Shown: positions 3,062-19,941, numbered from the stretch's first letter. The stretch is 64,000 nucleotides of DNA from Mycobacterium sp. (GCF_965277065.1 NZ_CBDIBT010000012.1:132-64131), one strand, 5' to 3'. Program-made: numbers and translations. Notes: generated by a model from the letters alone, not told the origin.

Positions 3062-3263
3062 GACTGTGATCGGCGCGACGTCAAGGACGGGGAGGTCGCC
3101 GGTCCGGGCGGATCGTTAAAAGATCGCGGTGACGACTAAAGATCGCGGTGACGATCAGCCATCCCGCTACGGTGGCGTTCGTGGCGCGGCTGGCATTCGC
3201 CGTCCTCCGCGGAACAGGGCAATGAACCTGGTTGACCACCGATCCGCTTCGGTGCGGAAACTG

Positions 3264-3905
3264 CTATCGCGGACGGTCGACTTCGTAGGTCCCGGCGTCA
3301 TCCGTGACCACGACCGTGACATGGCGTTGCGCACCGTTAACGGCGACGTCGCACACGAAACTCGTGCCCTTCCTGGCGCTCGGGTTGCGGCCGTGGTTGC
3401 AGCTGACGTCGCCGACGGTGTTGGCGCCGTAGCCGCCGACCGGATCCGACAGTATCTGCGCGACCCCGGCCTGCACCCTAGAGACGTCGAGGACCCGACC
3501 GCCGTCACCGAGTTGGATTGCGCTGCGGATGATCACGGCCACTGACATCACGATCGCCAATGCTCCGGCGCCGATCAAGAGCCCACGGATCCGCCGGTCG
3601 TGGGCTGCGGTGTCGGCGCCCCCGCCCGGCGGGGGCCGGAGGTGCGGCTTGACCGGTGGCCACGGTGCGACGGGGCGCTGATGCCACGGGGCGACCGGCG
3701 GCGGTGGCATCGGGCGGTGCCCGCTCGGAGATCGGCCCGGGCCCGGGGCGGGAGGCGGCGGCCGGTGCGGGCTCGGCGGGGTGCGAGGCCGGGGTGATCG
3801 CGGTCGGGCGATCGCGGTGGGGTCATCGGAGGTCGGAGGGCGCAGATACCAGGGCTGCTCGGGCCCGGGTCGCGGGCCTTGGCCGGACGGTGGCGGGCGG
3901 TTCAC
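3264..3905 (-). CDS. Pro-rich membrane protein with C-terminal DUF4333-like domain
   Basis: This is the lower part of the 616-aa ORF 3264..5114. A GTG at 3905 overlaps (GTGA) the stop of the upstream peptidase frame. It has a Pro-rich N-terminus, a TM segment (LLIGAGALAIVMSVAVII), then ..VSRVQAGVAQILSDPVGGYG..VSCNHG..SFVCDVAVNG..TYEV, a pattern I associate with DUF4333. Start is uncertain. Confidence 0.55.
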   Translation of the reverse strand: MNRPPPSGQGPRPGPEQPWYLRPPTSDDPTAIARPRSPRPRTPPSPHRPPPPAPGPGRSPSGHRPMPPPPVAPWHQRPVAPWPPVKPHLRPPPGGGADTAAHDRRIRGLLIGAGALAIVMSVAVIIRSAIQLGDGGRVLDVSRVQAGVAQILSDPVGGYGANTVGDVSCNHGRNPSARKGTSFVCDVAVNGAQRHVTVVVTDDAGTYEVDRPR

Positions 3906-5362
3906 GGGAAGTTTCCGTAACACCCGCCAGCATCGCCGATCAGCCCGGACCGGAACGCGACGATACGGGTGAACCCGGCGGGCACGGTGTCGCCGTCGAC
4001 GTCGCTGGCCACCAGATGATTGGTCAACAACCCCGATATCGCCTCGTCGAGATCGCCGGCGGACAGCACCAAGGTGCCGCCCCGACGGCAGCGCGACCGG
4101 GTCGGACATGCCGCGCTGCGCGACACCGGTCAGGCACGCGGTCCGTAGCGCGGCCCGCTCCCCGGTCGGCGCGACGCCGTGCTGGTGCTGCACGGCCAGC
4201 ATGTAGCGCGATGTCACCACCGAGAAGGCGGTGTCATCGCCCTGCAGCAGTTCGCGGTTCTCTTGATCGGCGTAGGCACCCATCTGACGCAGTGCCGGCA
4301 GGTCGACGGTGATGGTGTTGGTCGCCGGGCAGTACGCGGCCGCCGGACTGGGCCGGGCGTCGGCGCACGTGACGGGTGTGCTCGCGGCCAGGGTAGGCGG
4401 CTGGCTGGGATGAAAGATCTGGTTGAGGGTCTCCATCAGCAGTTGCACGGCGTCCTCGGTGATAGCCATCTCGCCGCGGTCGGTGGAGGAGTAGGTCTGC
4501 AGCGACTGCGGCAAACCGGCACGGCGGCGGGCGATTTCGTCCTTGTCGATGGCCGCGCAGGTGCCGGCGTCACCGTCGAACCCTTCCTGGAAGGCGCCTA
4601 CCCGGTCCAGCGCGGAGCCGTGCGCACCATGCGCATTACCGGGTTCGTCGACGGGATCGCGCAGCGTGATCCCGCCGGCCAGGACGTGATCGAGCCCGTC
4701 GGTGGTGTTCATCGTGAACCGCGGGGAGTCGCCCTGAGCCACCCAGCGCAGGTAGACGCCGGCGACGCAGTCGGCCTGCTGCTCGCGCACGATGGTGCGG
4801 GTGAACGTGTGGACGGTGCGCGCCTGGCGCTGCACCGCGTGACCGATTTCATGCGCCAGCACCCCCGCGACCGCGATGTCGCCAAAGTACTTGCGCGCGC
4901 TGGGAATCAGAACGCCGCGGTCCCAGGACACCGAGTCGTCCCGGGCACAGAACGCGGCGTTAGCGTCCCGGGCGATGGCGGTTTTGCCGCACACCCGCGG
5001 GCTGGCCGGATTGGCCGAATCATAGGACCGCACCGCGGCCAGCGGCGTGTACTGGCCCGAGAAGGACTCAGGGTAGGTCGACGCCCAGAAGCTCTGAATG
5101 TCGTTGACCGCCAACAGGGCAAGCCGGTCGCCGTCGCCACCGTCGCCGCCTTCGACCTCGCCTACCGCTGCCGGCGCGCCGGCGCGGATGCCGTTGGGTC
5201 GGTCGCTGGTGGCAGGCCACCGACCCGGTCGGGGTCATAGATCATCGACGCCGCCCGGCCGCGGATCACCGCGGAGTCACACGCAGTCGTCATCGGGCTC
5301 AGGCACGCCAAGGCAAGGGCCGCGGCGGTCAGGACCGTGCCGCGGTCGCCGAAGCGAGGCAC
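3902..5362 (-). pseudogene. lipoprotein-type neutral zinc metallopeptidase (HEXXH), interrupted by two frameshifts
   Basis: It reads in three frames. Signal/lipobox (LTAAALALACLSP..TTAC) is in ORF 5162..5362. The catalytic body, with DIQSFW.. and HEIGHAV, is in ORF 3264..5114 down to about 4085. The C-terminal end (..GGTLVLSAGDLDEAISGLL..CYGNFP*) is in ORF 3902..4126. The junctions lie near 5165-5215 and 4078-4086 (G-run). Confidence 0.7.
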
Positions 5363-6027: not shown

Positions 6028-7400
6028 ATGCCGGCGGGACGGGCGTTGGTTCGCGTGACCGCGGGTGCCTGCGTCGCCGGCCTGGTATTCATCAGCGGAG
6101 CGTGTACGACGCACCCACCGGAAGCCGCCAAGGGTCCGGCAACACTGACCCCCGGGCCCAGCCCAACGGGGGAGTGCGGCCCGAATCAGTTGGCGCGCTG
6201 CGTGCCTGGGCTGGCTGACTTCAGCGAGGAATTCGTCGACGACATCCTCGTCGAGGCGCCCAAGCCGCCGTTCGCCACGTGGCCGCGTTCGACCACGGCG
6301 CCGGAGTCGTCGCCCGCCGACTGCCAGATCCTGCCGCGGCTGGGTGCGCGGACCGGTCCCGAACTCGCCGTGAGTTACCAGCCGGCGACCGATGCGTACG
6401 GGGTTCGGCGCGACCCGCGCTGTGCGGCGAAAGACACCGAGTGGGTCGAGGTCCGGCGGATGGCTGCCGACGCCGATGTCGATCTCGTGCGGGCGATGAC
6501 CGATTGGGCCCGCCAGTGTCCGATCTGGGCCGTCGCCCCCACCAGAGGGGACGGACGGATCCAGACCTGGTTGCTCGGTGAATCCGCCGACGCGCTGGCC
6601 CGCTACCAGTCCGGTGAGATCGCCAGGCAGTGGCGCCGCGTCACCCAGATGGCGGCCGCGGTGCTGCCCAACGGCGTGATCGCGCAGGCATGGTTCAGCA
6701 CCGACGATCCCTCGGCGACATCCCGCCGCGACACCCTCACCCAGCTGATCGACGCTGTGGGCCGGCACCGGCCGCGGTCGGCGCTGCCGCCTCGGCTTGC
6801 CGACTGGAGCCCGGGTCAAATCTCGACGCTGCTGCCGCCGCTGGCGGCAGGGGTCATCGTCGACGCACGGTCGGGCCAGGACGCGGACCCGCCGTGGAAC
6901 GGCTGTCTAAACACCGAATACCCACCTGAGCCGCGCCGGGACAGCGTGGCTGAACGGCGCGACACCGACCCGTCACGGTGGGGGCAGCCCACGGTGACGA
7001 TCGGCCGGGCCTACCCCGGAATCGACTATCTCGCTGACCTGCGGCGCGAGATCGCCACCTGCGCAGCGCATTCCACCGATAAACCCGAGCTGTGCGCGGA
7101 CCGGGAGGACCGCCGATACCTCACCACCGACACCTCACCACCGATGCCGCGCTCGCCGACGGCGAGGACACCGTGCGGTTCACGCACCGGTGGATGCGCG
7201 TGGAAAAGGTACAGGCTTACGACCGCTGCGACGAAGGCATTGAGATATACCGCGTCACCCAGGTGCGGGGCTTCCTCGTCGTCAGCAGCACAACGCATTC
7301 AGGCGGGCCCAAGGCAGCCCCCGGTCCGTCGCCGGCGATGCCGCTGCAAACTCTCGACGAACTCCAGGCCGCGACCGCGCACCAGCTCAAAGCCGCGTGA
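6028..7400 (+). pseudogene. putative secreted lipoprotein, disrupted by a 14-nt tandem duplication
   Basis: ATG at 6028 gives MPAGRALVRVTAGACVAGLVFISGAC (lipobox). The reading frame switches from ORF 5419..7416 to ORF 7092..7400 exactly at the direct repeat ACCTCACCACCGAC/ACCTCACCACCGAT (7118..7131 and 7132..7145). Removing one copy restores ..DRRYLTTDAALADGEDTVRFTH.. Function unknown. Confidence 0.6.
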
Positions 7401-7409
7401 ATTCAGCGT

Positions 7410-7832
7410 TCACTGACCGATCCAGCCGTACTGCGTGGCAGCAGATGGCGCCTGCGGCCCCGTCCAGCCCGGCGCGTGCTGCCTTCCGTCATGGTTGGCG
7501 CTCCACCACTGCGCGTAGTGCTGAGCCTGTGCGGCCTGCTGGCGCAACGTTTTTCGGGCTGAGCTGTTTCGCCACAGCGAGATCGGATTCCACACCAGCA
7601 GCGACGCCAGACTCCACCAGCCGAGCAACAGATTGTGCTGCTGGGCCTGGGTGATCGCGGCGTCGCACTGCGCGTAGGTGCCCGTGACGGTGCGGTACTG
7701 GTTGTACCAAAAAACGAGGGCTCCGAGGTGTTTGGTGACCCTTACCTGGAAGATCGGTTCTACCGGAGGCGCTGGCGGCGGCCCGCCGGGTTGGTTCGGT
7801 GCCCCGTAGGCACTGCTACCCGCTGGATACAC
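7410..7832 (-). CDS. Pro-rich small membrane protein (hypothetical)
   Basis: 140-aa ORF with a Pro/Gly-rich N-terminus and hydrophobic segments (HLGALVFWY, LLLGWWSLASLLVW). No recognisable catalytic motif. Confidence 0.5.
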   Translation of the reverse strand: MYPAGSSAYGAPNQPGGPPPAPPVEPIFQVRVTKHLGALVFWYNQYRTVTGTYAQCDAAITQAQQHNLLLGWWSLASLLVWNPISLWRNSSARKTLRQQAAQAQHYAQWWSANHDGRQHAPGWTGPQAPSAATQYGWIGQ

Positions 7833-7994: not shown

Positions 7995-8648
7995 TTACAT
8001 GTTCTGCGACTGCTCCAGTGCGGCAGCGACAATGGGCTGCGCCCACGCCGGCGTCGCGGTCAGATCGGGCGGCCCCACGATGCGGCCGCGCTGCATGTGC
8101 AACACCAGCATAGGCGTCGGCGCCTGCCCGGTCGCCGGGTCGGCGGTCGCCGAGTTGTCATACATCCGTAGCTCGGTGAGCAACGATAGCAGGTTGATCA
8201 GATTGATCCGGCTGTGTCGGTACCGGCGGCGGATCGCGGCCTCCGGAATGTCATGGCCGCCGCCGCGGACCCGCTGCCGCACCCGTTCGATGTGCGCCTC
8301 GACGCCATCCAGGCCCACAAAGAAGAGGCGAACCTCGCTACCGCGGGCAGCGGCGTCAGCTAACAGCGCGGGAATGGTGTTGCCGCCCAGCGTGGTCTCG
8401 AAGGCGAAGTCGAGCCCTTCGTCGATCGCACGCCGCAACAGCGTGCGGCCCTGCTCCCATGCCGCCGCGTTGGCCTCGGTCTGACTCAGCCCGGGGTTGG
8501 CCGCCAAGATCGCTCGGGCGGCCTCATCGGGGTTGTAGTACTCACCACCCTTATCGCGGATCGTGGCACCGACGACGCTGCTCTTCCCGGCGCCATTGAT
8601 CCCTGCCAGTACACGTACTTGAGCCGGTGTCGCGGTCGTGCCCACCAT
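7995..8648 (-). CDS. zeta-toxin-family P-loop kinase (TA toxin)
   Basis: Walker A GINGAGKS near the N-terminus. At ~217 aa, its size and layout (..FAFETTLGG.., ..LFFVGLD.., ..RVRQRVRGGGHDIPE..) fit zeta/PezT-like kinases. It sits 13 nt downstream of a Phd/YefM-like gene. Confidence 0.7.
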   Translation of the reverse strand: MVGTTATPAQVRVLAGINGAGKSSVVGATIRDKGGEYYNPDEAARAILAANPGLSQTEANAAAWEQGRTLLRRAIDEGLDFAFETTLGGNTIPALLADAAARGSEVRLFFVGLDGVEAHIERVRQRVRGGGHDIPEAAIRRRYRHSRINLINLLSLLTELRMYDNSATADPATGQAPTPMLVLHMQRGRIVGPPDLTATPAWAQPIVAAALEQSQNM

Positions 8649-8661
8649 GGGTCGCGCTGGA

Positions 8662-9015
8662 TTACCGCGACTGCGCGGTGCGCGCCGCCTTCACCGCGGC
8701 GGCGCCCATCTCCTCCGGAGAGGCATCGAATGCCGCGGCGACTCCAGCCTTGGCTTCGGCCGTCTGCATGGTGGCCAGCAGCGCGCTGAAGCGCTCACCG
8801 AGGTCGTCGAGGGCGGGTGTGGCTGAGGCGGTCAGAGCCTCGAACTCCGCGTACGACAGCAGCACTGCCCTGGGGGTGTCGTGCTTGGTGATCACCACCG
8901 CGCCATCCGCTGCGGCCTGCTCAAAGACGCTGCCGAACTCGTTTTTGAGGCGGCTGGCGGTGACCGCGGGGACATCGACCAGCTTGCCGTCGCGGTTGCG
9001 GAACGAAACGGTCAT
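8662..9015 (-). CDS. Phd/YefM-family antitoxin
   Basis: ATG at 9015 is preceded by GAGGAG. The N-terminus MTVSFRNRDGKLVDVPAVTASRLKNEFGSVFEQAAADGAVVITKHDTPRAVLLSYAEFEAL is the classic Phd/YefM fold signature. An acidic/Ala-rich C-terminal tail follows. Confidence 0.7.
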   Translation of the reverse strand: MTVSFRNRDGKLVDVPAVTASRLKNEFGSVFEQAAADGAVVITKHDTPRAVLLSYAEFEALTASATPALDDLGERFSALLATMQTAEAKAGVAAAFDASPEEMGAAAVKAARTAQSR

Positions 9016-9389
9016 GATGGTCTCCTCACTCGTGCCTACATCCAACAGTTTAGACCTTTTGCCCATTATGTGCGATTCGGACATTCTGGCCAGTTCAGTA
9101 TGTCACCGTTCACTCGCCGCGTCGCAGATACATCCGACCGGTTCGTCCAGCCGCCCAAACCTGCTTGCGAGCGCGACGTCGAAACCGGTCGGATCCACGA
9201 ACTCCGCGCGGCCGTCGCGAGGGTGTGGAACAGAGGACGCCGGATTCAGACTCCGGTGCCCTTGACGGGCACGCAGGTTCGACTCCTGCAGGACGTACAC
9301 ACGTAGTGGGGCCGTTGGTGAATCGCGTATCGCTCTTGGCTTTTACCCATGAGTTCCGGGTTCGTGTCCCAGGCGGCCCACTGACCTGC

Positions 9390-9460
9390 GCGCCGTTAGC
9401 TGAGTTGGGATAGCACCAGGCTCTTCATCTGGGGACTGGGTTCGAAACCCTCGCGGCGTA
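9390..9460 (+). tRNA. tRNA-Lys(CUU)-like element, degenerate (possible pseudo-tRNA or att remnant)
   Basis: Manual fold: acceptor GCGCCGT/GCGGCGT (two G-U pairs), D-arm GCTG..TAGC, anticodon stem CCAGG/TCTGG with loop CTCTTCA (CTT), and T-loop TTCGAAA. Against a functional tRNA: the T-stem has only 3 good pairs, position 37 is C, the length is ~71 nt, and no CCA is encoded. Confidence 0.4.
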
Positions 9461-9694
9461 CACGATAGTCACGCCCCTCGACTGTGCCCGCAATTCCGCC
9501 GCGTTGAAGCGGATTAACAGACGCAGCCCGACGGGTAGAGCCGTAGTCTCCAAAAGCAGCGGTCTCGGGAGTGTGAGCGTCGGGTCGCCCGGTAAACGAG
9601 TTCGTCCGATGCGCGATCACACGTAGGCAGGCCTACGCTGGCGCATCGTAACTACGTTAACTACACTGTTCGTCAGCACCGTAGTTATCGTAGT

Positions 9695-10654
9695 TTGGGA
9701 GATGCCGTGAAGCTGCAGCCAGAGCGGTTTAAAGATCTCGATAGCGGGGGCCTGTATTTCGTCCAGCCGGACCCCGAGCGCACTGGCGAGCAACCCGACG
9801 ATCAATCGGGTAGCGCGCTGGTGGGCTTGGTCGTGCGCGGGCCCGCGTCCGCCGACCGCCCAGGCGTCGGTGATCGCGACGCGTCGCTCCGCCGGATACA
9901 GGCCGATGTTAAACACCTGATCGGGGAGGGCCCGGTCGTCACCACAGAGCTGAGCGCGATCCTGGAGCCGGGTCAGGCAGCTCAACTGAAGACCGCACAC
10001 CTTGCGAACGTGGACGAGTTGCTTACTAAGGTCCGAAACCTCCTCGCCCACGACAACAGCCCCTTCAGTAGAGCAATGGTCCTTCACGGTCCGCGCGGGG
10101 ATATTGCCCACCACGCAGTGGCAGCGGAGGAAGGTCGGTCGTCGTCAGTTGCATTGCTGGACAGCATGATTGAGACAGCCCGCGCGCAGCTCCGGTTGCT
10201 GATTGAGTTCCGCGACACGCAGGCCGCCCCCGCCCACGAGGACGTGGCGGTCCAAACCGCGACCGGCCCCTTTCGGTACAGGCTGCCGTTGAGCCTGGAT
10301 GACACCTTCAGTTCGACCGAGGCGAGCACCATCCTTTCTCCCACAGGCAAACCCCACCGCACGATCGCGCAGAATCGTCGACGGGCCAACGAGCTGCTGG
10401 GGGTCAAGATAGGCAACCGCTACCGGTATCCGAAATTTCAGGTCGATCCTGCGAAGCACGAGATTCGCCCGGTCGTCGCGCATGCCAACCGCAGACTGGA
10501 AAGCGATGCCGACCCCTGGGGTGCCCTGGACTGGTGGTTTTCTGAAGACGAAGGTCTCGGCGGCCGGCGCCCGGTGGACCTGCTGCAACAACACGAATTA
10601 GGCGAGGACGTCGTCGATTTCGCTATCGACCGCAGTCAGCAAGGTATGGACTGA
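9695..10654 (+). CDS. Xre/MbcA/ParS-type antitoxin (HTH + DUF2384-like C-terminal domain)
   Basis: The C-terminal third (..RRANELLGVKIGNRYRYPKFQVD..PWGALDWWFSEDEGLGGRRPVDLLQQHELGEDVVDFAI) looks like an excisionase-type HTH plus the toxin-binding domain of RES-associated antitoxins. It ends 6 nt before the RES gene. The N-terminal extent is uncertain (alternative ATG at 10076). Confidence 0.6.
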   Translation: MGDAVKLQPERFKDLDSGGLYFVQPDPERTGEQPDDQSGSALVGLVVRGPASADRPGVGDRDASLRRIQADVKHLIGEGPVVTTELSAILEPGQAAQLKTAHLANVDELLTKVRNLLAHDNSPFSRAMVLHGPRGDIAHHAVAAEEGRSSSVALLDSMIETARAQLRLLIEFRDTQAAPAHEDVAVQTATGPFRYRLPLSLDDTFSSTEASTILSPTGKPHRTIAQNRRRANELLGVKIGNRYRYPKFQVDPAKHEIRPVVAHANRRLESDADPWGALDWWFSEDEGLGGRRPVDLLQQHELGEDVVDFAIDRSQQGMD

Positions 10655-10660
10655 AAGTCG

Positions 10661-11305
10661 GTGGCGACCAACGTCTACAACGGCACCGCTGCCGATCTGG
10701 AACCCATCACCAAAGGAAGCACGCTCTATCGGATTCGCGCTGCCGGCGCTACTTACGCGGCAAACTCGTTCAATCCCAGACCCAAGCCGCTGCACGACAC
10801 CGCCCAAGGTCGTTTCGAGCCCACCGACCCCGTGCTGGGTGGCTATCTCTATGTAGCGCCAACACTTCTCGGCGCCGTCGCCGAAGGCATATTGCGCAAC
10901 CAACCCATTCCCGCATCCCGCCTGGTGCCGAGATTGTGGTTGTCCAACAAGATGCTCGCGGTCCTCACCCTCAACGAAGACATTCCCGCGGCCGCTGCCT
11001 ACGGGTCACACGCCGCCAAACTGAACCTGGATTCGTCCTTCCTGTGCCGCGACTCCAGTGCCTACAGCGCCACCCGCACCGCGGGCACCGAGATCCTGCT
11101 GAATACCCCGGCTGCACGCGCGCTGGCCTACCCGTGCCGCAATTGCGAGTCCAAAGTCGCCCTGATGCTGATTGCACGCGCTGCCACGCCGGCGGTCAGT
11201 GTTCAAAGCGAAGTCGAAATCCTGAAAGATCCAGCGGCCGCTAGGCTCGTCGTTGACACCCTCGACCTCGGGTTCGGCCTCAAGTACGCCGGTCGGATGC
11301 CCTGA
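10661..11305 (+). CDS. RES-domain toxin (NAD+-targeting family)
   Basis: 214 aa. Candidate Arg (AQGRFEP), Glu (AVAEGIL) and Ser (CRNCESKVALML) blocks are in RES-like order, and it is tightly coupled to the Xre/DUF2384-like gene upstream. Confidence 0.65.
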   Translation: MATNVYNGTAADLEPITKGSTLYRIRAAGATYAANSFNPRPKPLHDTAQGRFEPTDPVLGGYLYVAPTLLGAVAEGILRNQPIPASRLVPRLWLSNKMLAVLTLNEDIPAAAAYGSHAAKLNLDSSFLCRDSSAYSATRTAGTEILLNTPAARALAYPCRNCESKVALMLIARAATPAVSVQSEVEILKDPAAARLVVDTLDLGFGLKYAGRMP

Positions 11306-11480
11306 CCGCGGCAGGCGCACTCTCAAAGGGTTCGAAATGTCAGCGAGTGGTTACCGGGGCGACCAAGATTTAGCCAGTGATTCCCGGTTATCAATGGAAA
11401 GGCTTCGGCAGTCTGCGCGCGAACGACCGGGCCGCACAGAGGCGATGGGCGGCTTGTTCTCGAAATGCAGGCATCGCCAG

Positions 11481-12785
11481 TCAGTGATCGGTCGGACGTA
11501 CAACGTAATTGCCGGGATCGTTTTGAGAGTTCAAGAAGTAGGTAGCTGCGGCCGCTTGTACGGCTTTTTGAAAGTCTTGATCAGCCGATGTGCCGCCGCG
11601 CCATACCTCTTCGCCGTCGATCATTAGGAGGTATTCGGGACCGCGGCGTTCCACGCGATACAACGGCATGAGATTTGTTTGGATGACGTTGCCATGCAGA
11701 GTTACCGCTATGCGGGTCTGGTGCCATTCTTCGTCGGCGGTCACCTGTTCTTCGTTCGCTGATTGCAGCACGCGAAGGCCGCGCCCGTTCGCGAAGTCCT
11801 GGTTGGTCCGGGCGATCGACGATATAAGTGCAGCAAGCGCCTCCCGGCGTCTTGCTAAATCTGAAATCCCTTGACTAACAACGACCTCGTCGACCTTCGC
11901 GAGGAGGTCGTCAAGGTCGCCGCTGCCTTTATGGGGTTGCATGGCTTTCTCTAATGCCGAGATAAGCTCTAGGCCTGTTTGGTACCGCCGCGAAAGGTCG
12001 TTTTGGAACGCCCTGTCGAAGGCGGACGAGATCCGGAGGATTTGGCGTTCATCGAGAACCGCGGCCAGGACCGCGCGGGTTTCTGGCCGCTGATGTGGCA
12101 TGCGCCCGGACTCGTCTGTCAAGACTCGAGGTTCGTGTCCAGTAATGGTGTAGAGGAATATCCCGGCCAGCTGAGTGACGTCACTTGCAGGATCCTGGCT
12201 ACCCGGTCGAGCGTGCTCTGGTAGGCGAAGGAATCGATTTCCGATCTCTTCGTTGACCCGGGTTAGGTCGTCCTCGGCAGCATTATTAAACGATAGGCCA
12301 AAGTCCACCAGCACTGGATTGACCAAATCGCGGCCCCGCAATACAACGTTGGCTGGCTTGATGTCGCGGTGAATGACGTTGTTCTCATGGCATCGAGTGA
12401 GAGCTTCGGCAAGCTCACGCGCACACTCCAAGGCTGCGTTGACATCTGGGGCATCGTTGCGCCGCACCCTATAGGTCCTGAGATCCACTCCGTCGACGAG
12501 TTCCATGCCCATGTACATGGGGGTGCCGCGTTCTAGCCAGATTTCGGCATTGTGGTCTATGAGGGTCGGCGGCCCGAGGCCGGCCAGAGTCTCGTAGGCG
12601 GTTACTTCACGCTTGAATCTGCCGCGGGCGCGGCGGTCGTTCACCCGGGTCTTATGCAGTGTCTTGATGAATACGCTCGGTTTACCGTCACCGTCGATCG
12701 GTCTGCCGATGAACGAGTCCCCTTGTCCGCCCTGTATGGGCGCAGCGCGCACGCGGATCCAGCGGTCTTCCCATCGCTTGGCCAT
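11481..12785 (-). CDS. cytoplasmic Hanks-type Ser/Thr kinase-like protein with unknown ~150-aa C-terminal domain
   Basis: Gly-rich loop IQGGQGDSFIG, Lys block VFIKTL, catalytic loop [16 protein letters not shown], and the APE-like RLPEH. No TM segment. The C-terminal part (..LRVLQSANEEQVTADEEWHQTRIAVTLHG..) has no motif I recognise. It is the last gene of the operon with the ATPase. Confidence 0.8.
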   Translation of the reverse strand: MAKRWEDRWIRVRAAPIQGGQGDSFIGRPIDGDGKPSVFIKTLHKTRVNDRRARGRFKREVTAYETLAGLGPPTLIDHNAEIWLERGTPMYMGMELVDGVDLRTYRVRRNDAPDVNAALECARELAEALTRCHENNVIHRDIKPANVVLRGRDLVNPVLVDFGLSFNNAAEDDLTRVNEEIGNRFLRLPEHARPGSQDPASDVTQLAGIFLYTITGHEPRVLTDESGRMPHQRPETRAVLAAVLDERQILRISSAFDRAFQNDLSRRYQTGLELISALEKAMQPHKGSGDLDDLLAKVDEVVVSQGISDLARRREALAALISSIARTNQDFANGRGLRVLQSANEEQVTADEEWHQTRIAVTLHGNVIQTNLMPLYRVERRGPEYLLMIDGEEVWRGGTSADQDFQKAVQAAAATYFLNSQNDPGNYVVRPTDH

Positions 12786-12824
12786 CCGATTCCTCCTGAG
12801 AGCCAGTCCAGTCCAGAAGGCTCT

Positions 12825-15380
12825 TCACTCTAAAAGGCCGCCCGGCCAATGCTTTCGATGATCTCGCGCGATTTTGTTCAAATTGCCGAACACCACCTTG
12901 AGGTCTGCGGTTGACGGAACGTCATCGTCGTGGCTGCCAGGGTTGAGTACCTGGGGAAAGGTCCGCCATAGCCCGCGTTCGGCGTTGCCGTCCACCACGA
13001 GCGGCAAAACTAGGGGTAGGAGGGCGCCCAGAGTCGAAGCCTTCGCTTCGATGTCCTCGACCGTCGTTGCTATGCCGGCGTGGGTTTGACCGGAGGCCAC
13101 GATCTGTTTGGCGAGCCGCTCCGCGGCGGTGCGCATTACGTTGCACGCAGGCCGTCGACCTCGGGCAGTCGGAGCGTAGAGGCTTTCCTGGGCTTCGAGC
13201 ATGAGCTGACCGAAAACGTCACACGTCTGCGTGGGCTCTGTGCCGTCAAGGATGTTGATGAGGTCGAGCTTGTAACCCAAGTAGTCGTTGCCGCCACCGT
13301 GGTTGGCCTGGGTCAGTTTCGCGAACTTGCTGTCAAAAGTTGTCAGAATGACTTGGGTGTCTGAAGCGAGCAACTGGCCCAGAGTGGTTTGGATGAACGA
13401 AAGGCGATGATCAGAGTCGCTGCCGGGAATGGGGTCGTCGAGCACCACAATCCGCGTTCCAAGTAGCTCGGTGCGCGCCAAAAAGATTGACAGGCCCAGA
13501 GCGTTCAGCTGGGAATCGCTGTAGACGCCAAGGGCTTCGCGTTCGACGGGGGTGCTGGTCGCGGCAATGCGGAGCGCGGCGACGAGGTTGACGAATAAGG
13601 CGCCGCCAGCGCGGCGCTTGATGCCGCCGAACCCCACAAGCTCGTCGGGACGGATGGTGGCCCACCATTTGGTGATGGTGTCGCTCATCTGGGTGAATTT
13701 GGTGTCCAGAACGGCACCGGCGGCCGCATTGAGCGCTTTCTCGGCTGTGTTGAGGCGTCGGATGATCTGTTGCCGCGTGCCCTCGCTGACCACATCGGTG
13801 ATCAGCTCGTTCCGGCACCGCACCAGGTTGGCGACCTCGCGAAGTCCCGAGACGGCCACACGCTCCCGAGAGGCCGCGTCGACGGCCGTGCGTAGCACGG
13901 TCGCTGAGCGGTTGTATTCCGTGACAGCCGTGCTGAGGTTGTCCGCGGCGGCAACAACATTGCGGTACCCGATCTCGAGGTCAGTCGCCACGGGGTGGCG
14001 GCCAGCCACGGCATCTCCGGCTTGTTCAAGCGCGCCCCGCAGCGCCGCGCAGGCTGTGGTGAGCGCGGTTGCGGCCACCGCGATGTCGGTGGCCTGCGTT
14101 CGGGCGCCAGCAGCCAAAGCGGCATCGATGCCGAGCCCACGGAGATTGTCGCTGGCAAGGGTGACTTGTTCGACGGTCCAACGGGCCGCCGCGGGCACGC
14201 TGGCCGAAGCGGCCGTGACGAGTCGGTCAAGACCATGCCGCATTTCGGCCAACGCTGCGGTCGTCGATCGTGCGGCCGAACTGAGGGACTGGGTGCGGCG
14301 CAGGTAGTCCCGAAGCTCCCCGATCCGGTTAGGGGTCAGGGCATCGCTGGTGCCGCAGACCGGGCAGTCGACAGGTTGCTCGAGCGTGCCGTATTCCTCA
14401 ATGCCCAGAACCGCTTCGAATAACGGCGTGTGCTGGGCGGCCTGGTGATCCAGCTCGTCCAACGCCGCGCGATACTCATCGAGGTTCGGAAACTCGGGAA
14501 CTGTTCCCAGCGGTCCGGTTGCGAACGCTGATAACGGAAATACCTGCTCGCGTTGGTCTTCCAGCGCGGCTACGAGCGCGTGACGCAGCGCATCGACGTC
14601 ATCGACGTCATCGACTTCAGCGCCACCGAGCGCGAGCACCGCGCGCCCTGCTGTCAGGAGCGCTGAATCTATAGCGGTCTTGGCCGCCTCGGTGGTGATG
14701 GGTTTCTTGGCCAGGGCGGCAATGCTCTCACCCGACGAGCCGGCAGGTGTCCCGGTCAAGGCTTTAAGCAGGCGGAAAGCACTCCCTGGTTGTTCGGCGT
14801 CGATGCGGCCACGTGCAGCGCGTACACGTTCCCGGAACAAGTCCAGATCAGTCAGCTCGAGTAAAGCCTTGAAATAGCCGACCCGCTGTTTTGGCTCGGT
14901 CGACAGCACGTGGCGCAACGTGTGCTGCAACAGCACCGGCGCGCGGACCGGGGGGTCGGCCAACGGCAGGCCCACGTGGTCGAGGTTGTTGGCTTTCACA
15001 CCGTCGACTAGGAGACGACTATCGCATTCGGCACCCTGGGAGAAGTCGGACAGCAGCTCGCGGCGGACCTCGTGGGTAGTGCCGGCGGCGTCCCGCACCA
15101 GGGCTTGGACGTACACATCGGTGTCAGCGGCCGGTAGGTGCGCGTTGCGCAGACTGTCGTGATACTCGGCCTTGGAACCGCCCAGCATCTCGCGGCGGCT
15201 GCTTCGCCCGCTGATGAGAAACTCGATAGCCTCAGTGAGGCTGGTCTTGCCTTGGCTATTACCAGCGTGAACGACCACCAGCGGCGCATCGAGCTGCAAC
15301 GTGCGGGCTTCAGTGCCGAAGGCGCGGAAGCCGCGGATCTCCAGCGAGACCAAGCGAGGCCCGGTCGTGCCGCCAGTCAA
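12825..15380 (-). CDS. Rad50/SbcC/SMC-like ABC-type ATPase with central CxxC hook
   Basis: N-terminal LEIRGFRAFG..VVHAGNSQGKTSLTEAI (Walker A). A long Ala/Leu/Glu-rich middle contains CPVCGT (zinc-hook-like). C-terminal signature-like SDSQLNALGLSIFLA and Walker B IVVLDDPIPGSD, plus an extra ~170-aa tail. The TTG start overlaps the stop of the small upstream ORF. Confidence 0.8.
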   Translation of the reverse strand: MTGGTTGPRLVSLEIRGFRAFGTEARTLQLDAPLVVVHAGNSQGKTSLTEAIEFLISGRSSRREMLGGSKAEYHDSLRNAHLPAADTDVYVQALVRDAAGTTHEVRRELLSDFSQGAECDSRLLVDGVKANNLDHVGLPLADPPVRAPVLLQHTLRHVLSTEPKQRVGYFKALLELTDLDLFRERVRAARGRIDAEQPGSAFRLLKALTGTPAGSSGESIAALAKKPITTEAAKTAIDSALLTAGRAVLALGGAEVDDVDDVDALRHALVAALEDQREQVFPLSAFATGPLGTVPEFPNLDEYRAALDELDHQAAQHTPLFEAVLGIEEYGTLEQPVDCPVCGTSDALTPNRIGELRDYLRRTQSLSSAARSTTAALAEMRHGLDRLVTAASASVPAAARWTVEQVTLASDNLRGLGIDAALAAGARTQATDIAVAATALTTACAALRGALEQAGDAVAGRHPVATDLEIGYRNVVAAADNLSTAVTEYNRSATVLRTAVDAASRERVAVSGLREVANLVRCRNELITDVVSEGTRQQIIRRLNTAEKALNAAAGAVLDTKFTQMSDTITKWWATIRPDELVGFGGIKRRAGGALFVNLVAALRIAATSTPVEREALGVYSDSQLNALGLSIFLARTELLGTRIVVLDDPIPGSDSDHRLSFIQTTLGQLLASDTQVILTTFDSKFAKLTQANHGGGNDYLGYKLDLINILDGTEPTQTCDVFGQLMLEAQESLYAPTARGRRPACNVMRTAAERLAKQIVASGQTHAGIATTVEDIEAKASTLGALLPLVLPLVVDGNAERGLWRTFPQVLNPGSHDDDVPSTADLKVVFGNLNKIARDHRKHWPGGLLE

Positions 15381-15544
15381 AGTGTCCGCCAGGTGGCGAT
15401 CACCGCGTCGAGCGCCTGGTCGAGATCATCCTCGGTGGTGGACTCGGCGACGGCTTCCGCGAGAGTCCGGGCATCGCGCGCGCCGCCGGTGTCGCCGACT
15501 AGGTGGGTCAGCAAGGCGTCAAGATTGGGCAGCAGCTCGCTCAT
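15377..15544 (-). CDS. 55-aa acidic small protein (below the ORF-track cutoff)
   Basis: Manual translation gives MSELLPNLDALLTHLVGDTGGARDARTLAEAVAESTTEDDLDQALDAVIATWRTL*. Its TGA overlaps the TTG start of the ATPase (CTTTGA), suggesting translational coupling. No strong RBS was seen. Confidence 0.4.
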   Translation of the reverse strand: MSELLPNLDALLTHLVGDTGGARDARTLAEAVAESTTEDDLDQALDAVIATWRTL

Positions 15545-15665
15545 TGAACGGCAGCCTAGCCGCTATCACCCGGGCTTTTTCGTAACCCGTGCACTTCGTC
15601 GACCGTTCGGGTGACCGTCAGCGAGGCGATTCGCGTTCTCAGCTTGGTTGAGCAGGGATTAACCC

Positions 15666-16697
15666 CTACAGCGGATTTCGCGCTACTGCGCTTCGTGTCT
15701 CGGTACCGGCGGCGGTGATATATCGCTGTGAGGTAGTCATCGATTCATGCCTCAGCAGCTTCATGAGTGTGTAGACGTTGACGTCGGAGTCGGCGAGTTC
15801 GGTGGCTTAGGTGTGGCGCAATTCGTGCACAAGTGCGCCAGGCACGGGCTGGGCGTCGGGGCCGGCGCGCTTGAACGCTCGCTTGATGCGTGATTGCAGC
15901 GTTCCCTGGGTAATACGTTCGCCGTCGCGGCCGACGAACAGTGGGGAGCGTGCAGACCATCGAGCCAGACCGGATCCTGCTGTCATTCTGTGCTTCTCGG
16001 CTTGCGGAAAGCGGATAGCGCGGCTTTCGAGATAAGTCTGAATGACCGCGAGGAGTTCGGCTTCGATAGGGACGCTGCGCTCCTTCCCGCCCTTACCCTT
16101 GACGTAGATGACAGCTGCGCCATCATCGGTCGTGCGGATGTCGCTGACATTGGCCCCTCGGAGCTCCTCGGCGCGCAGCCCGGCTAACAACGCGGTCAGG
16201 ATGATCGCGAGATCAATTTGGACCCAATCGGTTTGCCGCTTGGAGCCGTAATCCTGAGCCACGAACTCTAGCAGCGCTTCGACCGCGGTGCGGGGGAGCG
16301 CTTTGGGCAGGCTCTTGGCCAGCTTAGGCCGACCGACCAACTGCATAGGGTTGGCGGCTAGCTGTTCGCCGGTATAGAGGAAGGTGCACAACACATTCCA
16401 GGTCGACCAGCAGCGCTGGATAAACGCGGCTTCGTGATCGTGAGCGTAAGCGGCGAACGCCGCCCGCATCGAATCCCTAGTTATGTCAACTATATTCAAG
16501 CCAGCCGGATCACCGTCGGCGATCAGACTGGCGATGGCGATGAAGTCCTGGCGGTAGGCCTTCATGGTGTGCGCGGAAGGTTTGCGGGTCTGACGGTCGC
16601 GCAGGAACGCAGTGAACCACTCCGGGAACGGATCGGCCTCACCGGCATCCGGGCCGTCGGCCGACCCCGGGCGAGCACCATCGCGATTGTCGGACAC
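15666..16697 (-). pseudogene. tyrosine recombinase/integrase (XerC/D-like) with premature in-frame stop
   Basis: The ORF ends ..ALVHELRHT at TAA 15807..15809. The same frame continues ATELADSDVNVYTLMKLLRHESMTTSQRYITAAG..NPL* to TAG 15666..15668. The conserved His and the catalytic Tyr (QRY) therefore lie after the stop. Confidence 0.8.
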
Positions 16698-17006
16698 CTG
16701 CTCCGGTATCAGAATAAGATGGGTAATATATCCTATCCATCCAGTAGGCGAAAACGGTTGCCTAGCTGTGACTTTCCAGAGATATCTGCCAGGGGAGATG
16801 TGTGACCGTGACGAAACATCGCGTGGCCGCCGCGCCTGTTTTGATGCGGGCGCTACGCTGCCTGCATGAGCGACGGCTCCGCTAATGGTCTCGATACGGA
16901 TGACATGGTCGAGATTCTTTCAAAATAGCCGTATCGGCCGGTGATTCCTCACGCCTGCGATAGGTTGGCCTCGAAGTCGCGGGCTCCGACGATTGGAGGG
17001 CTATTT

Positions 17007-17456
17007 ATGTCCACTGTTGAATGCCGCTACTGCGATAAGTGCCACGGCATGTTCTACGACGGCTCGGACAAGAAGGGAGTATGTCCGTCCGGCCACGGGC
17101 ATCACGCCGAAGGCTACCGGTTCGAACTGCCAGTGAACAAGCCCGAAACACGGGTGGGTCAACCGCACTAGCGACTCTGTGGCACCCGCTTTGGGGTGTT
17201 CTATGACGGCTACCCCGACAAAGGACACTGCCCAGCCGGGAGCAGCCATCGCCAAGATTCCGACGACATGTTGCTCAACCACGACCTGCCGGAAACCAAT
17301 GGGGCGCAAGCGCAGTGGCGTTTCTGTAATCGCTGTCACGGCTTGTTTTATGACGGCTATCCCGACAAGGGACACTGCCCGGCCGGCGGCGGGCATCACG
17401 CGCAGGGTTTCAACTTCGTGCTGCCGCACCTCCCAGTCGGTGGGCCCATCGACTGA
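17007..17456 (+). pseudogene. three tandem Cys/His-rich ~50-aa modules, interrupted by an in-frame TAG
   Basis: GGAGGG RBS, then ATG at 17007. The repeats follow [W/Y]R[F/Y]CxxCHG[LM]FYDGxxDKGxCPxGxGHHAxGxxFxLP. ORFs 16941..17171 and 17196..17456 are in the same frame, and the TAG at 17169..17171 sits where the repeat has Trp (TGG). The middle repeat has also lost the second Cys and the His. Confidence 0.55.
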
Positions 17457-18039
17457 CGAAGCGACTCCCGACGACAAGATGCTCGCGCGCAGTCCTAACT
17501 GATGGGTACCGCGTTGACGATGTTCTGGCGCACCGTGTTCGCGCTGCCTCGACCGTGGCCGGGTCAGCCAAGTAAGCGCTCGACCGATGCCGCGGCCCCG
17601 GCGGTGGCCAGTGCCGGCTTGGCGGTTTGACCAGTACAAGCGTCGAGCTGTTGGCCGGCGCCTCTAGTATCCTGAACCAGCCGCGGTGCGGGTTGCGCGA
17701 CGCGGCCTTGTCGGTGCGCAGAGCAAACCGCCGATCGCCTTGGTTGTGTTAGCACGGGTAGGTTGCGGTGAAGCTGGATCGGCAGCCGGAGCGGCCGCCG
17801 GGGAGCTGACGATGGTCGGCGAATTGCGGAGCGTCGCGGACCATATAAAAGAAAACGGTGCACCGACGCAACCGACACCGACGATCGATCGACCACTAGC
17901 GCCGCCGCGTGGCTCGTGCCCGTCGATTGCTGGCGAACGCGGCTGCAAATTGTGATACGGCAGATCCGCGCGAGCGCAGCTGGTATTGAATACAGGTGCG
18001 TAAGTGGCGGTTCTGAGTGGTCAACATCGGGTGGAAGCG

Positions 18040-19941
18040 ATGAGCGCAGGCGAGGAAGCCTGGGTCGACCGTGCGCACTGCGCGCTGGGTGCGCTGGCAT
18101 CGATGACGATTCCGGCGACGCCGCAGGTCGTGCGGGAAATGGTGGCTGCACGCTTCGCACCGCAGTTCGACGAGGGTGATCGACTCTACAAAGAGGGCAA
18201 GCCGCACTGGCAGCAGCGGGTCGACGATGCGGTGAGCAGCCTGATCACCGCCAAGCTCGTCACGAGGACGGGGTCGGCGAAACGCGGCCGCACCGCCACG
18301 GATACCCGCGCCGCGGACGTCACCCCGACGCTGCGGTTGACCGCTGACGGTCAAAGCGGTGTGGCCGCCGCCTGCGAAAGAGCCGACACGCCCGGTGCAT
18401 CGCCCGTTACACAGAAGTCGATAGCGCCTCCCGACAACCGCCGTCCTATAAATGATCTGGTGATCGCCGGGGTGTTGACGCCGCCCCTGCGGCAGAAGAT
18501 CGCCAATGATCCTCGGCCTCGTGGACCTGATGCCGCGCCAGCACGATGGCCGGTGATGATCGAGCTCAACGCACGATTCAACTCGGGACCCGCTGCGGCC
18601 ATGCAGCGGGTAGAGCATCTGTGGCGACTCGTCGGCGGCTTCGAGGAGCCGGTGCTGCTCGCCGATCAGTACGGGGTCGGCGAACTAACCAGCGATCAGC
18701 TTGAGGGCGTGGTGTCGGCGGACACCGCCGGCGGCGACCGGCCGATGCGGGCGATCTACCGCATCTGGCCCGACTTCGACACTCATCGCCACGTCGATGT
18801 GTCGTCGTCGACGATCAAGGCCCAGCCTGCGCAACGATCCTTCAACGCGTTCGGCGATGGAATCGTCTGGGCCGTTGTGGATTCCGGTATTCAGGCTGAT
18901 CACCCGCACTTCCTGGGGTATCAGACGCTGACCGACGACACGGTGAAATCGCTTCATCGCGACTTCACTTGCGACAGCGACGATCCCACGCTCGCCCTGA
19001 TCGACCAAGACGGCCACGGCACCCATGTGGCCGGCATCATCGCGGGAGGACTGGAGAAGTGGCAATCCGCTGATCGCGCAGTGATCGCGACGGAGAAGCG
19101 CTTCAACGCCGGATCGCCCGACGGCGACTTTCCGGTCCTGCAGCCCCGCGAGGTGCAGGACATCGACAAACTCGCCGGCATGGCGCCCCACGCCAAGTTG
19201 GTCAGCCTGAAGGTGCTCGCCGAAGGAACGTGGACCACCCGCGTCAGCCGCGTCATACGCGCTCTGGCCTACATCCGCGAACAGAACGCCTCAAGCAGCA
19301 AGGTTCCGCTCATCCACGGCGTCAACCTGAGTCTGGGCTACGAATTCGCCGCGGACTGGTACGCCTGCGGGCAGAGCCCCCTGTGTACCGAGGTGGACAG
19401 GCTGGTGCGCTCCGGGGTCGTGGTGGTCGTGGCCGCGGGCAACACCGGATATGTCACCCTGAACCCCGAGTTCGCCAGCGACATAACCCATTTCAGTGCC
19501 GCGGTCACCATCAACGACCCCGGCAACGCCGAGCGCGCGATTACCGTCGGCTCTACCCACCGGGATTCTCCGCACACATTTGGCGTCTCTTACTTTTCCT
19601 CCCGCGGCCCGACCGGAGACGGCCGCGCCAAACCCGACCTTGTTGCTCCGGGGGAGCGCATCACGTCAGCCGCGGCGGGCAAGAACCTGCTCGCCGTCAA
19701 AGAAGCACACCCCGAGGGCATCGACGGTGCCGCCGTGTATGTCGAGGAAAGCGGCACAAGCATGGCCGCACCGCATGTGTCCGGGGCCATCGCCGCATTG
19801 TTGTCTGTGCGGAAGGAAATGATCGGCAACCCCGAGGAAGTCAAGCGCATCATGGTCGCCTCGGCGACGTCGCTGGGCCGAGATCCCGCGTTCCAGGGAG
19901 GTGGCCTCGTCGACCTCATGCGCGCACTGCAATCCGTTTAG
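18040..19941 (+). CDS. intracellular S8 (subtilisin-like) serine peptidase with N-terminal winged-helix-like extension
   Basis: Triad blocks VWAVVDSGIQADHPHF (Asp), DGHGTHVAGIIAG (His) and GTSMAAPHVSGAIAALL (Ser). No signal peptide. The first ~90 aa (..FAPQFDEGDRLYKEGKPHWQQRVDDAVSSLITAKLVTRTG) resemble Mrr_N-type wHTH domains. An alternative upstream start lies at 18004. Confidence 0.85.
   Translation: MSAGEEAWVDRAHCALGALASMTIPATPQVVREMVAARFAPQFDEGDRLYKEGKPHWQQRVDDAVSSLITAKLVTRTGSAKRGRTATDTRAADVTPTLRLTADGQSGVAAACERADTPGASPVTQKSIAPPDNRRPINDLVIAGVLTPPLRQKIANDPRPRGPDAAPARWPVMIELNARFNSGPAAAMQRVEHLWRLVGGFEEPVLLADQYGVGELTSDQLEGVVSADTAGGDRPMRAIYRIWPDFDTHRHVDVSSSTIKAQPAQRSFNAFGDGIVWAVVDSGIQADHPHFLGYQTLTDDTVKSLHRDFTCDSDDPTLALIDQDGHGTHVAGIIAGGLEKWQSADRAVIATEKRFNAGSPDGDFPVLQPREVQDIDKLAGMAPHAKLVSLKVLAEGTWTTRVSRVIRALAYIREQNASSSKVPLIHGVNLSLGYEFAADWYACGQSPLCTEVDRLVRSGVVVVVAAGNTGYVTLNPEFASDITHFSAAVTINDPGNAERAITVGSTHRDSPHTFGVSYFSSRGPTGDGRAKPDLVAPGERITSAAAGKNLLAVKEAHPEGIDGAAVYVEESGTSMAAPHVSGAIAALLSVRKEMIGNPEEVKRIMVASATSLGRDPAFQGGGLVDLMRALQSV

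Follow-up and report, generated by a model that had tools for sequence, protein, structure and literature searches.

The three genes at positions 11,481 to 15,544 of a 64,000-nucleotide stretch of Mycobacterium sp. DNA (GCF_965277065.1, NZ_CBDIBT010000012.1:132-64131; this whole stretch is referred to as the window) are probably two unrelated mobile defence-type cassettes that happen to adjoin. One of these is a conserved pair, formed by a 55-residue acidic protein and an 851-residue zinc-hook ATPase of a divergent RloC-like type, and the other is a stand-alone Hanks-type Ser/Thr kinase. The original prediction, made from the DNA sequence alone, had put the same genes forward as a candidate for one uncharacterised defence system, with an ATP-binding cassette (ABC) sensor and the kinase as its effector. 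This assignment is not upheld by the comparison with other genomes, where the genes are not conserved together and where DNA homology stops at the gene borders. The open reading frames (ORFs) are:

15377..15544 (-): ORF with an ATG start, 55-residue acidic protein (isoelectric point about 4.05).
12825..15380 (-): ORF with a TTG start, 851-residue RloC-like ATPase.
11481..12785 (-): ORF with an ATG start, 434-residue Hanks-type Ser/Thr kinase.

All three are found, closely spaced or coupled, where they had been predicted. The stop of the 55-residue ORF and the start of the ATPase gene overlap by 4 nt (TTGA), and the gap between the ATPase and kinase genes is 39 nt, with a GGAGGA sequence 7 nt upstream of the kinase ATG. 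Each of the genes has more than 150 homologues of matching length, and the 55-residue ORF is conserved in sequence as well as in position; these are therefore real genes and not chance ORFs. Pfam assigns AAA_23/SMC_N to the 851-residue protein and Pkinase (3e-16) to the 434-residue protein. The predicted anatomy, being a small acidic protein, a Rad50/SMC-like zinc-hook ABC ATPase and a competent-looking Hanks kinase with an extra C-terminal domain, is confirmed, and the motifs quoted for it can all be read in the encoded proteins: the ATPase contains HAGNSQGKT, YSDSQLNALG, VVLDDP and CPVCGT, and the kinase contains HRDIKPAN and DFG.

The ATPase-side sample consists of 28 loci, obtained by scanning one genome per species, and includes Mycobacterium, Mycolicibacterium, Nakamurella, Cellulomonas, Microbacterium, Leucobacter, Corynebacterium, Arthrobacter and other genera. 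When these loci are searched by tblastn with the three window proteins, the kinase adjoins the ATPase in none of the 28, and co-conservation of the triad is thus not seen; an unrelated kinase is present 5 kb from the ATPase in one of them. At L029, where the closest ATPase (88% identical) is encoded, the order is integrase fragment, 55-residue ORF and ATPase, followed by genes other than those found here, and the kinase is absent. It is also absent beside the distant ATPase relatives (six loci of three relatives). No ATPase is found near the kinase relatives either (five loci of four relatives, with 82%, 60%, 52% and 50% identity), the surroundings of which are GmrSD and Fic genes (in M. marinum), a type I restriction-modification (R-M) operon, an IS110 transposase and core genes.

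The DNA homology between the window and L029, as detected by blastn, extends from 16295 to 12821, ending 4 nt past the ATPase stop codon, and the homology with the locus of the 82%-identical kinase (L030) covers 12786 to 11480 and coincides with the kinase ORF to within 1 nt. These blocks end at the gene borders, and therefore two cassettes with separate histories abut over a short junction:

12787..12820 (-): unique junction between the cassettes, 34 nt, between the ends of the L029 and L030 homology (blastn).

At other loci, the ATPase gene is followed by integrases, a DDE transposase, a resolvase, a signal peptidase II, a methyltransferase and unknowns. A variable third gene, as found for Lamassu effectors, was also considered and rejected, as what follows the ATPase is a set of unrelated genes from mobile elements or of housekeeping type.

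The conserved unit is the 55-residue acidic protein together with the 851-residue ATPase. The small ORF is directly upstream of the ATPase gene in 26 of the 26 evaluable loci (22 identified by tblastn and 4 diverged copies by motif search), where evaluable means an intact upstream region; from the 28 loci, L009 (contig end) and L028 (gene disrupted) are left out. The copies have 53-56 residues and an isoelectric point of about 4.1, they share the pattern LLPNLxxLL...DAR...W, and they usually overlap the ATPase start. In the window protein, the LLPNLxxLL motif is N-terminal and the W is C-terminal. ATPase relatives of about 30% identity retain an ORF of 55-57 residues with PNLxxLL. The protein has no match in Pfam, PADLOC, NCBIfam or PHROGs. 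A coupled small ORF is absent in two RloC-type relatives that were inspected, and therefore only this branch and the Bradyrhizobium relative described below appear to have the partner.

For the ATPase, more than 250 full-length homologues of about 840-860 residues are found, and those bearing organism names belong to the Actinomycetota. The AlphaFold2 model (built on 63 sequences, with a predicted local distance difference test (pLDDT) score of 86.6) has three parts. These are an ABC head in two segments, a helical insert between residues 177 and 576, which forms an antiparallel arm with the zinc hook at its end, and an all-helical C-terminal domain (residues 722-844, referred to as the C-domain). 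The functional elements are:

15243..15269 (-): Walker A, residues 38-46 (HAGNSQGKT), with N41, S42, G44 and K45 invariant.
14355..14366 (-): zinc hook C339-P-V-C342, between helices 328-331 and 350-362 of the insert in the model, with both cysteines invariant.
13431..13451 (-): Walker B, residues 644-650 (IVVLDDP), in which DD replaces DE, with D648, D649 and P650 invariant; followed by D655 of the D-loop and H658.
12849..13217 (-): all-helical C-domain, residues 722-844, predicted anticodon nuclease (HEPN/DUF4145-type).

Invariance refers to 19 divergent family members, down to 28% identity. The signature residues S621, S623 and Q624 and the D-loop residue D655 are also invariant, such that the motifs of the ABC head are all present (GNSQGKT, SDSQ, LDDP...D655, H658), with H658 being only nearly invariant and the others invariant. 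In a Foldseek comparison of the model with the Protein Data Bank (PDB), Rad50 (7zr1, E=9e-13) is the first match, followed by SMC, cohesin and condensin heads; Lamassu LmuB (9hqu_A) is found at rank 24 (E=3e-8), and JetC and MukB are also listed. A search of the PDB sequences gives weak Rad50/SMC head matches only, and tblastn against phages gives nothing. The curated models (Pfam, NCBIfam, PADLOC 2.0) provide generic ATPase or partial LmuB matches and no specific name for the module, and some members are named 'SbcCD subunit C' by their sources. In Pseudoclavibacter helvolus (L028, 4648-7824), the ATPase gene is broken by an opposite-strand ORF of 436 residues (6114-7424), and a second 436-residue ORF is present at 3159-4469; this looks like disruption by an insertion sequence.

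The tail of the ATPase, which the original prediction had left unexplained, is a nuclease-like C-domain that can be aligned with the C-domains of AAA_13/DUF4145 proteins. When modelled alone with AlphaFold2, it has a pLDDT of 87.7 and a predicted template modelling score of 0.83, and residues R750, E754, K758, H817 and D818 are invariant in the 19 members. An exhaustive HMMER search with the C-domain profile finds 166 clusters at 50% identity, and in all of these the domain is C-terminal in proteins of about 805-863 residues, or in fragments of them; the architecture is a single, fixed one. In the Foldseek comparison with the PDB, HEPN proteins, the typical fold of which is a four-helix up-down bundle, make up most of the top dozen (2q00, 2jpu, 1wwp, 1wol, 1ufb, 7bxo, 6m6w and 3o10, including SsR10, ST0689, TT1696, HepT and the sacsin HEPN domain), with probabilities up to 1.00 and template modelling scores of 0.5-0.68, but with weak E-values (all >=0.1). 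The C-domain alone has no match in Pfam, PADLOC, NCBIfam or PHROGs, and Foldseek against viral structures gives nothing informative. The HEPN superfamily is marked by Ex3[KR] in its first helix and by Rx4-6H ahead of the last one (PMC3710099); of these, Ex3[KR] is present and invariant as E754-x3-K758. Because the ATPase has this nuclease-like domain of its own, it needs no separate effector.

By its published description, RloC combines an ABC head, into which a Rad50-like coiled-coil/CxxC segment is inserted, with a C-terminal anticodon nuclease of the arrangement Arg-X3-Glu-X36-52-His, often with a Ser before the His (PMC2610378, Davidov & Kaufmann 2008); in the Geobacillus protein (804 residues) the residues concerned are C291, R692, E696 and H737 (PMC2610378). 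The window ATPase has C339/C342 and R750-X3-E754-X62-S816-H817. A tblastn search of plasmids with the ATPase finds one distant split relative, from Bradyrhizobium, which provides a bridge to RloC-labelled proteins. This relative has a small upstream ORF, a CPMC hook, the LDDP sequence and RVLSE...DPAHH; its close homologues carry the Joint Genome Institute (JGI) name 'wobble nucleotide-excising tRNase', and remoter ones have AAA_13, some together with DUF4145. One ATPase-family member also weakly matches DUF4145 in its C-domain. The AAA_13-type proteins have CP[FY]C hooks (CP[FMY]C for the RloC-type relatives as a whole), an LDDP Walker B and R-x3-E-x51/52-[SA]H. When the ATPase family is aligned over its full length with the AAA_13-type proteins by hhalign, the probability is 99.9% (E=5.6e-34, 649 columns), and for the C-domains alone against the AAA_13/DUF4145 proteins it is 97.2% (E=3e-11, 116 columns), with RxAAERLxK being paired with RKAxERLxK and NPGSHD with NPNSHD; against the JGI-named clade the C-domain gives 88% (E=3e-6). 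This homology therefore places the window ATPase in the RloC superfamily, as a divergent member.

On its plasmid (Bradyrhizobium septentrionale, NZ_CP147713.1; L041, 4826-7429), the bridging relative is annotated as 401 + 405 residues, split near mid-arm, which is either a frameshift or a genuinely split form; a 66-residue ORF is upstream, and AbiEi/AbiEii adjoin. Four AAA_13-type proteins (P0441, P0443, P0444 and P0446; 664-700 residues) start, as called, at the equivalent of window residue 113 and have no Walker A, due to either mis-called starts or N-terminal truncation.

The kinase matches the PADLOC PD-T4-6 model PDLC04046 (one of PDLC04039-04063) with E=7e-126 and 419 bits over profile positions 8-421 of 427, and its non-kinase C-terminal domain alone matches the same model with E=4.7e-15. 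PD-T4-6, which comes from E. coli, is a defence system consisting of one Ser/Thr kinase gene (Vassallo et al. 2022, PMC9519451). Because the PADLOC PD-T4-6 calls are broad, the window kinase is filed as PD-T4-6-type and not as a proven orthologue. As judged from these matches, the kinase appears to be an independent PD-T4-6-type single-gene cassette, possibly co-transcribed here, which is not part of the ATPase cassette. With profile tools both parts thus fall into named kinds, the kinase matching PD-T4-6 and the ATPase being homologous to RloC-type ABC/zinc-hook/anticodon-nuclease proteins. Assignment to a named system and a lack of co-conservation had both been given in the original prediction as grounds for its refutation.

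Several observations weigh against the assignment to the RloC type and against the separation of the two cassettes. The Glu-His spacer of the window ATPase has 62 residues, which is outside the published range of 36-52. Pfam AAA_13, which covers PrrC and RloC, scores 14.4 bits against a cutoff of 36, in the Walker B region only (26.9 bits for the best member of the ATPase family), and no PrrC- or RloC-named model of PADLOC or NCBIfam is matched. The link to RloC runs via JGI- and Pfam-labelled proteins, with Geobacillus RloC being compared by its published description. The HEPN matches of the C-domain have the weak E-values noted above, a search of the C-domain against the PDB sequences gives no match, and the canonical Rx4-6H is absent, the His motif N813-P-G-S-H817 having no Arg 4-6 residues upstream; PrrC/RloC-type domains have been described as atypical HEPN in the same sense (PMC3710099). 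PADLOC ranks LmuB models best for the head (2e-14), which may therefore be closer to Lamassu/Rad50 than it is to PrrC. The kinase may be co-transcribed with the ATPase, because no terminator is predicted in the gap between them.

This last point, together with the common strand, the 4-nt overlap, the 39-nt gap and the defence-island-like surroundings, is also what favours the alternative of a single new defence system, in which an SMC/ABC sensor controls a protein-kinase effector with the 55-residue protein as accessory; an ABC sensor with an effector is, in general, a frequent logic in defence. Nevertheless, this alternative is very improbable and is largely refuted by co-occurrence, as the kinase and the ATPase are together in 0/28 genome loci, 0/1 nearest-relative locus and 0/6 distant loci, and the ATPase is present in 0/5 kinase-relative loci. 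The cassette borders are gene borders, the ATPase already bears its own effector-like domain, and the C-terminal domain of the kinase is common to its stand-alone relatives. Tight spacing inside a defence island is, as this case shows, no evidence of a functional unit.

Two other alternatives concern the pair itself, and both are considered unlikely, to a similar degree. The pair could be a Lamassu (ABC-3C) derivative, with an LmuB-like sensor, a small LmuC-like component and an effector that is fused to LmuB rather than being a separate LmuA. This would agree with the PADLOC matches, the best of which are LmuB models (2e-14, 4e-14 and 2e-11), with the structural match to LmuB (9hqu_A, E=3e-8), with the CPVCG hook, which fits the 'CPxCG' motif reported for LmuB (PMC10586767), with the small size of LmuC and its binding near the hook (bioRxiv 2025.03.14.643221), and with a Walker B without the catalytic Glu, as in many LmuB proteins. 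However, each of the LmuB matches is partial, Rad50 and SMC heads rank above LmuB structurally, the C-domain aligns with RloC-type domains, the small protein matches no LmuC model, and the gene order differs, with the small gene first and no LmuA. An LmuA-type effector gene is found neither in the window nor at the other loci; the LmuA and LmuC models have no match in the window genes or in 10 individually scanned downstream ORFs, and none in the top neighbour families of 24 loci. Alternatively, the pair could have no role in immunity, being a toxin-antitoxin or addiction module that stabilises a mobile element, or an SbcC/Rad50-like repair or maintenance factor. The neighbours of the module are mostly mobile-element genes (122 ORFs), the small acidic gene is first and is coupled to a large, potentially toxic protein, which is the usual layout of type II toxin-antitoxin modules, and the name 'SbcCD subunit C' would suit a repair role. 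The invariant nuclease-like residues and the RloC homology oppose a pure repair role, and an SbcD/Mre11 partner is found nowhere, neither in the window nor among the 122 neighbouring ORFs. Some members adjoin R-M-like or Mrr genes, and AbiE, and addiction and abortive defence are compatible with each other.

For the preferred reading, of a divergent RloC-like pair beside a stand-alone kinase, a mechanism can be proposed by analogy with RloC (PMC2610378, PMC3458546, PMC3874168; HEPN survey PMC3710099), in which the ATPase would most likely be a DNA-damage- or phage-sensing anticodon nuclease. The hook-dimerised ABC head would monitor DNA, being ends, damage, phage DNA or replication intermediates, and a conformational change that depends on DNA and on the binding or hydrolysis of ATP would free the C-terminal RNase. 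The RNase would then cleave tRNA anticodon loops, translation would stop and the infection would abort. The small acidic protein is most likely a family-specific regulator, which would most simply act as a gate or antitoxin-like inhibitor of the nuclease or of the DNA-binding surface; the main alternative is an LmuC-like structural accessory near the hook. It is possible, but rather doubtful, that the 55-residue protein and the hook-bearing ABC/HEPN protein make up a distinct immune module of two components, so far without a name, that belongs to actinobacterial mobile elements; the small protein would then be the switch, for example as an antitoxin-like plug or nucleic-acid mimic that is displaced by phage infection or DNA damage, thereby arming an RloC-type tRNase.

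These results remove a tempting 'three-gene kinase-effector system' from the list of candidates and define a conserved two-gene module, which is found in 166 clusters at 50% identity and, for the most part, on mobile elements of actinobacteria. If the ATPase is a tRNase gated by its 55-residue partner, the module would provide a simple, genetically tractable handle on how a Rad50-like sensor controls RloC-type nucleases, the activation of which is poorly understood, and it would give mycobacterial genomic islands an additional function, in defence or addiction.

The mobile, defence-type surroundings that had been predicted for the three genes are borne out. The other features of the island are:

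15807..16697 (-): truncated tyrosine recombinase, XerC-like, with its C-terminal end missing; its 3' part (to 16295), like the small ORF and the ATPase, falls within the L029 homology block.
10661..11305 (+): RES-domain protein (Pfam 2.4e-8).
9695..10654 (+): 319-residue partner of the RES protein, with no Pfam Xre/MbcA match and a weak Rv2175c_C match (E=0.006).
7995..8648 and 8662..9084 (-): zeta-toxin/AAA_33-like protein preceded by a Phd/YefM-type antitoxin; this second toxin-antitoxin-like pair lies immediately outside the tRNA genes.
9309..9381 and 9390..9461 (+): two tandem tRNA-Lys calls, with UUU and CUU anticodons, at the edge of the lower-GC island.
16941..17171 and 17196..17456 (+): two small ORFs with repeated Cys/His-rich units, C-x2-C-H-G-[ML]-F-Y-D-G...K-G-x-C-P-[SA]-G...H-H.
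18004..19941 (+): 645-residue S8 subtilase (PADLOC 'subtilase' model 1e-51, weaker IetS/IteS anti-phage peptidase models).

The flanks are as predicted with regard to the RES protein and the decayed integrase, which is the truncated recombinase, whereas the 'Xre' label of the RES partner finds no Xre-type match in Pfam. By eye, the C-terminus of this partner (WWFSEDEGLGGRRPVDLL) resembles the toxin-binding domain of an antitoxin. The S8 subtilase may be another defence-type gene on the island. Among the neighbours of the module at 24 non-redundant loci (122 ORFs), mobile-element genes are the commonest families, with 7 phage-type integrases, 3 resolvases, 3 DNA methylases, transposases, ParA and a TrwC relaxase, and no recurring third partner is found. 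Mobile elements carry the two-gene module as cargo. In a 33%-identical relative (L035, 1468-7499; L036, 20-5655), the gene pair comes immediately after a DUF499 (+ HEPN_Swt1) gene that belongs to an R-M-like cluster, and at L037 and L038 an Mrr_cat gene is upstream.

The tRNA-Lys pair looks atypical: the first call scores only 36 bits with Rfam and the second is missed, neither minimum free energy fold is a cloverleaf, and the second has an apparent pyrimidine at position 37. When window positions 9000-17000 are compared with PLSDB by megablast, the tRNA stretch alone matches, with 80-92% identity, in megaplasmids of Mycobacterium and Mycolicibacterium. tRNA-Lys is the classic substrate of PrrC and RloC, and a relation of the atypical pair to the nuclease substrate is speculative; a tRNA-Lys is near the module in none of the 27 other loci, and therefore no tRNA link is claimed.

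When compared with known systems, the kinase resembles PD-T4-6 in being a stand-alone, cytoplasmic Hanks-type kinase of about 430 residues with a non-kinase C-terminal domain, and in having relatives that adjoin GmrSD, Fic and type I R-M genes; this comparison is with the PADLOC models, which over-call housekeeping kinases, and not with the validated E. coli protein. The ATPase shares with Rad50/SbcC the zinc hook, and the best structural match of its head and arm is Rad50 (7zr1), but its arm is much shorter, it has a nuclease-like domain added at the C-terminus, and its distribution on mobile elements is patchy. The module and Lamassu have in common an ABC ATPase of Rad50-like type, in which a CPxCG hook and a degenerate Walker B are found, as well as a small accessory protein and, as proposed here, an abortive logic; the module differs in having no LmuA gene, an effector-like domain fused to the ATPase, another gene order and only partial LmuB matches.

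PrrC is a tRNA-Lys anticodon nuclease that is silenced by EcoprrI. The features in common with the window ATPase are the ABC head and a C-terminal HEPN-type anticodon nuclease with an Arg-Glu-His triad, which is predicted here, and, by analogy, a latent activity that would be held in check by a partner. Unlike the window ATPase, PrrC has no coiled-coil or zinc-hook insert and sits in a type Ic R-M operon, whereas the candidate silencer of the module is the 55-residue acidic protein; no PrrC model is matched. With regard to RloC, the head of the window ATPase scores as AAA_23/SMC_N and LmuB-like, below the AAA_13 threshold, its coupled 55-residue acidic partner is obligate, and the close relatives retrieved are all actinobacterial. 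The same architecture is seen in both, in a single polypeptide of similar length (851 versus 804 residues), with an ABC head that has an LDDP-type Walker B, a Rad50-like insert bearing a CxxC hook and, at the C-terminus, a helical domain in which R-x3-E...[S]H is found. The occasional linkage of the module to R-M-like genes is also in agreement with RloC, and this linkage recalls the name, as 'rlo' stands for restriction-linked ORF.

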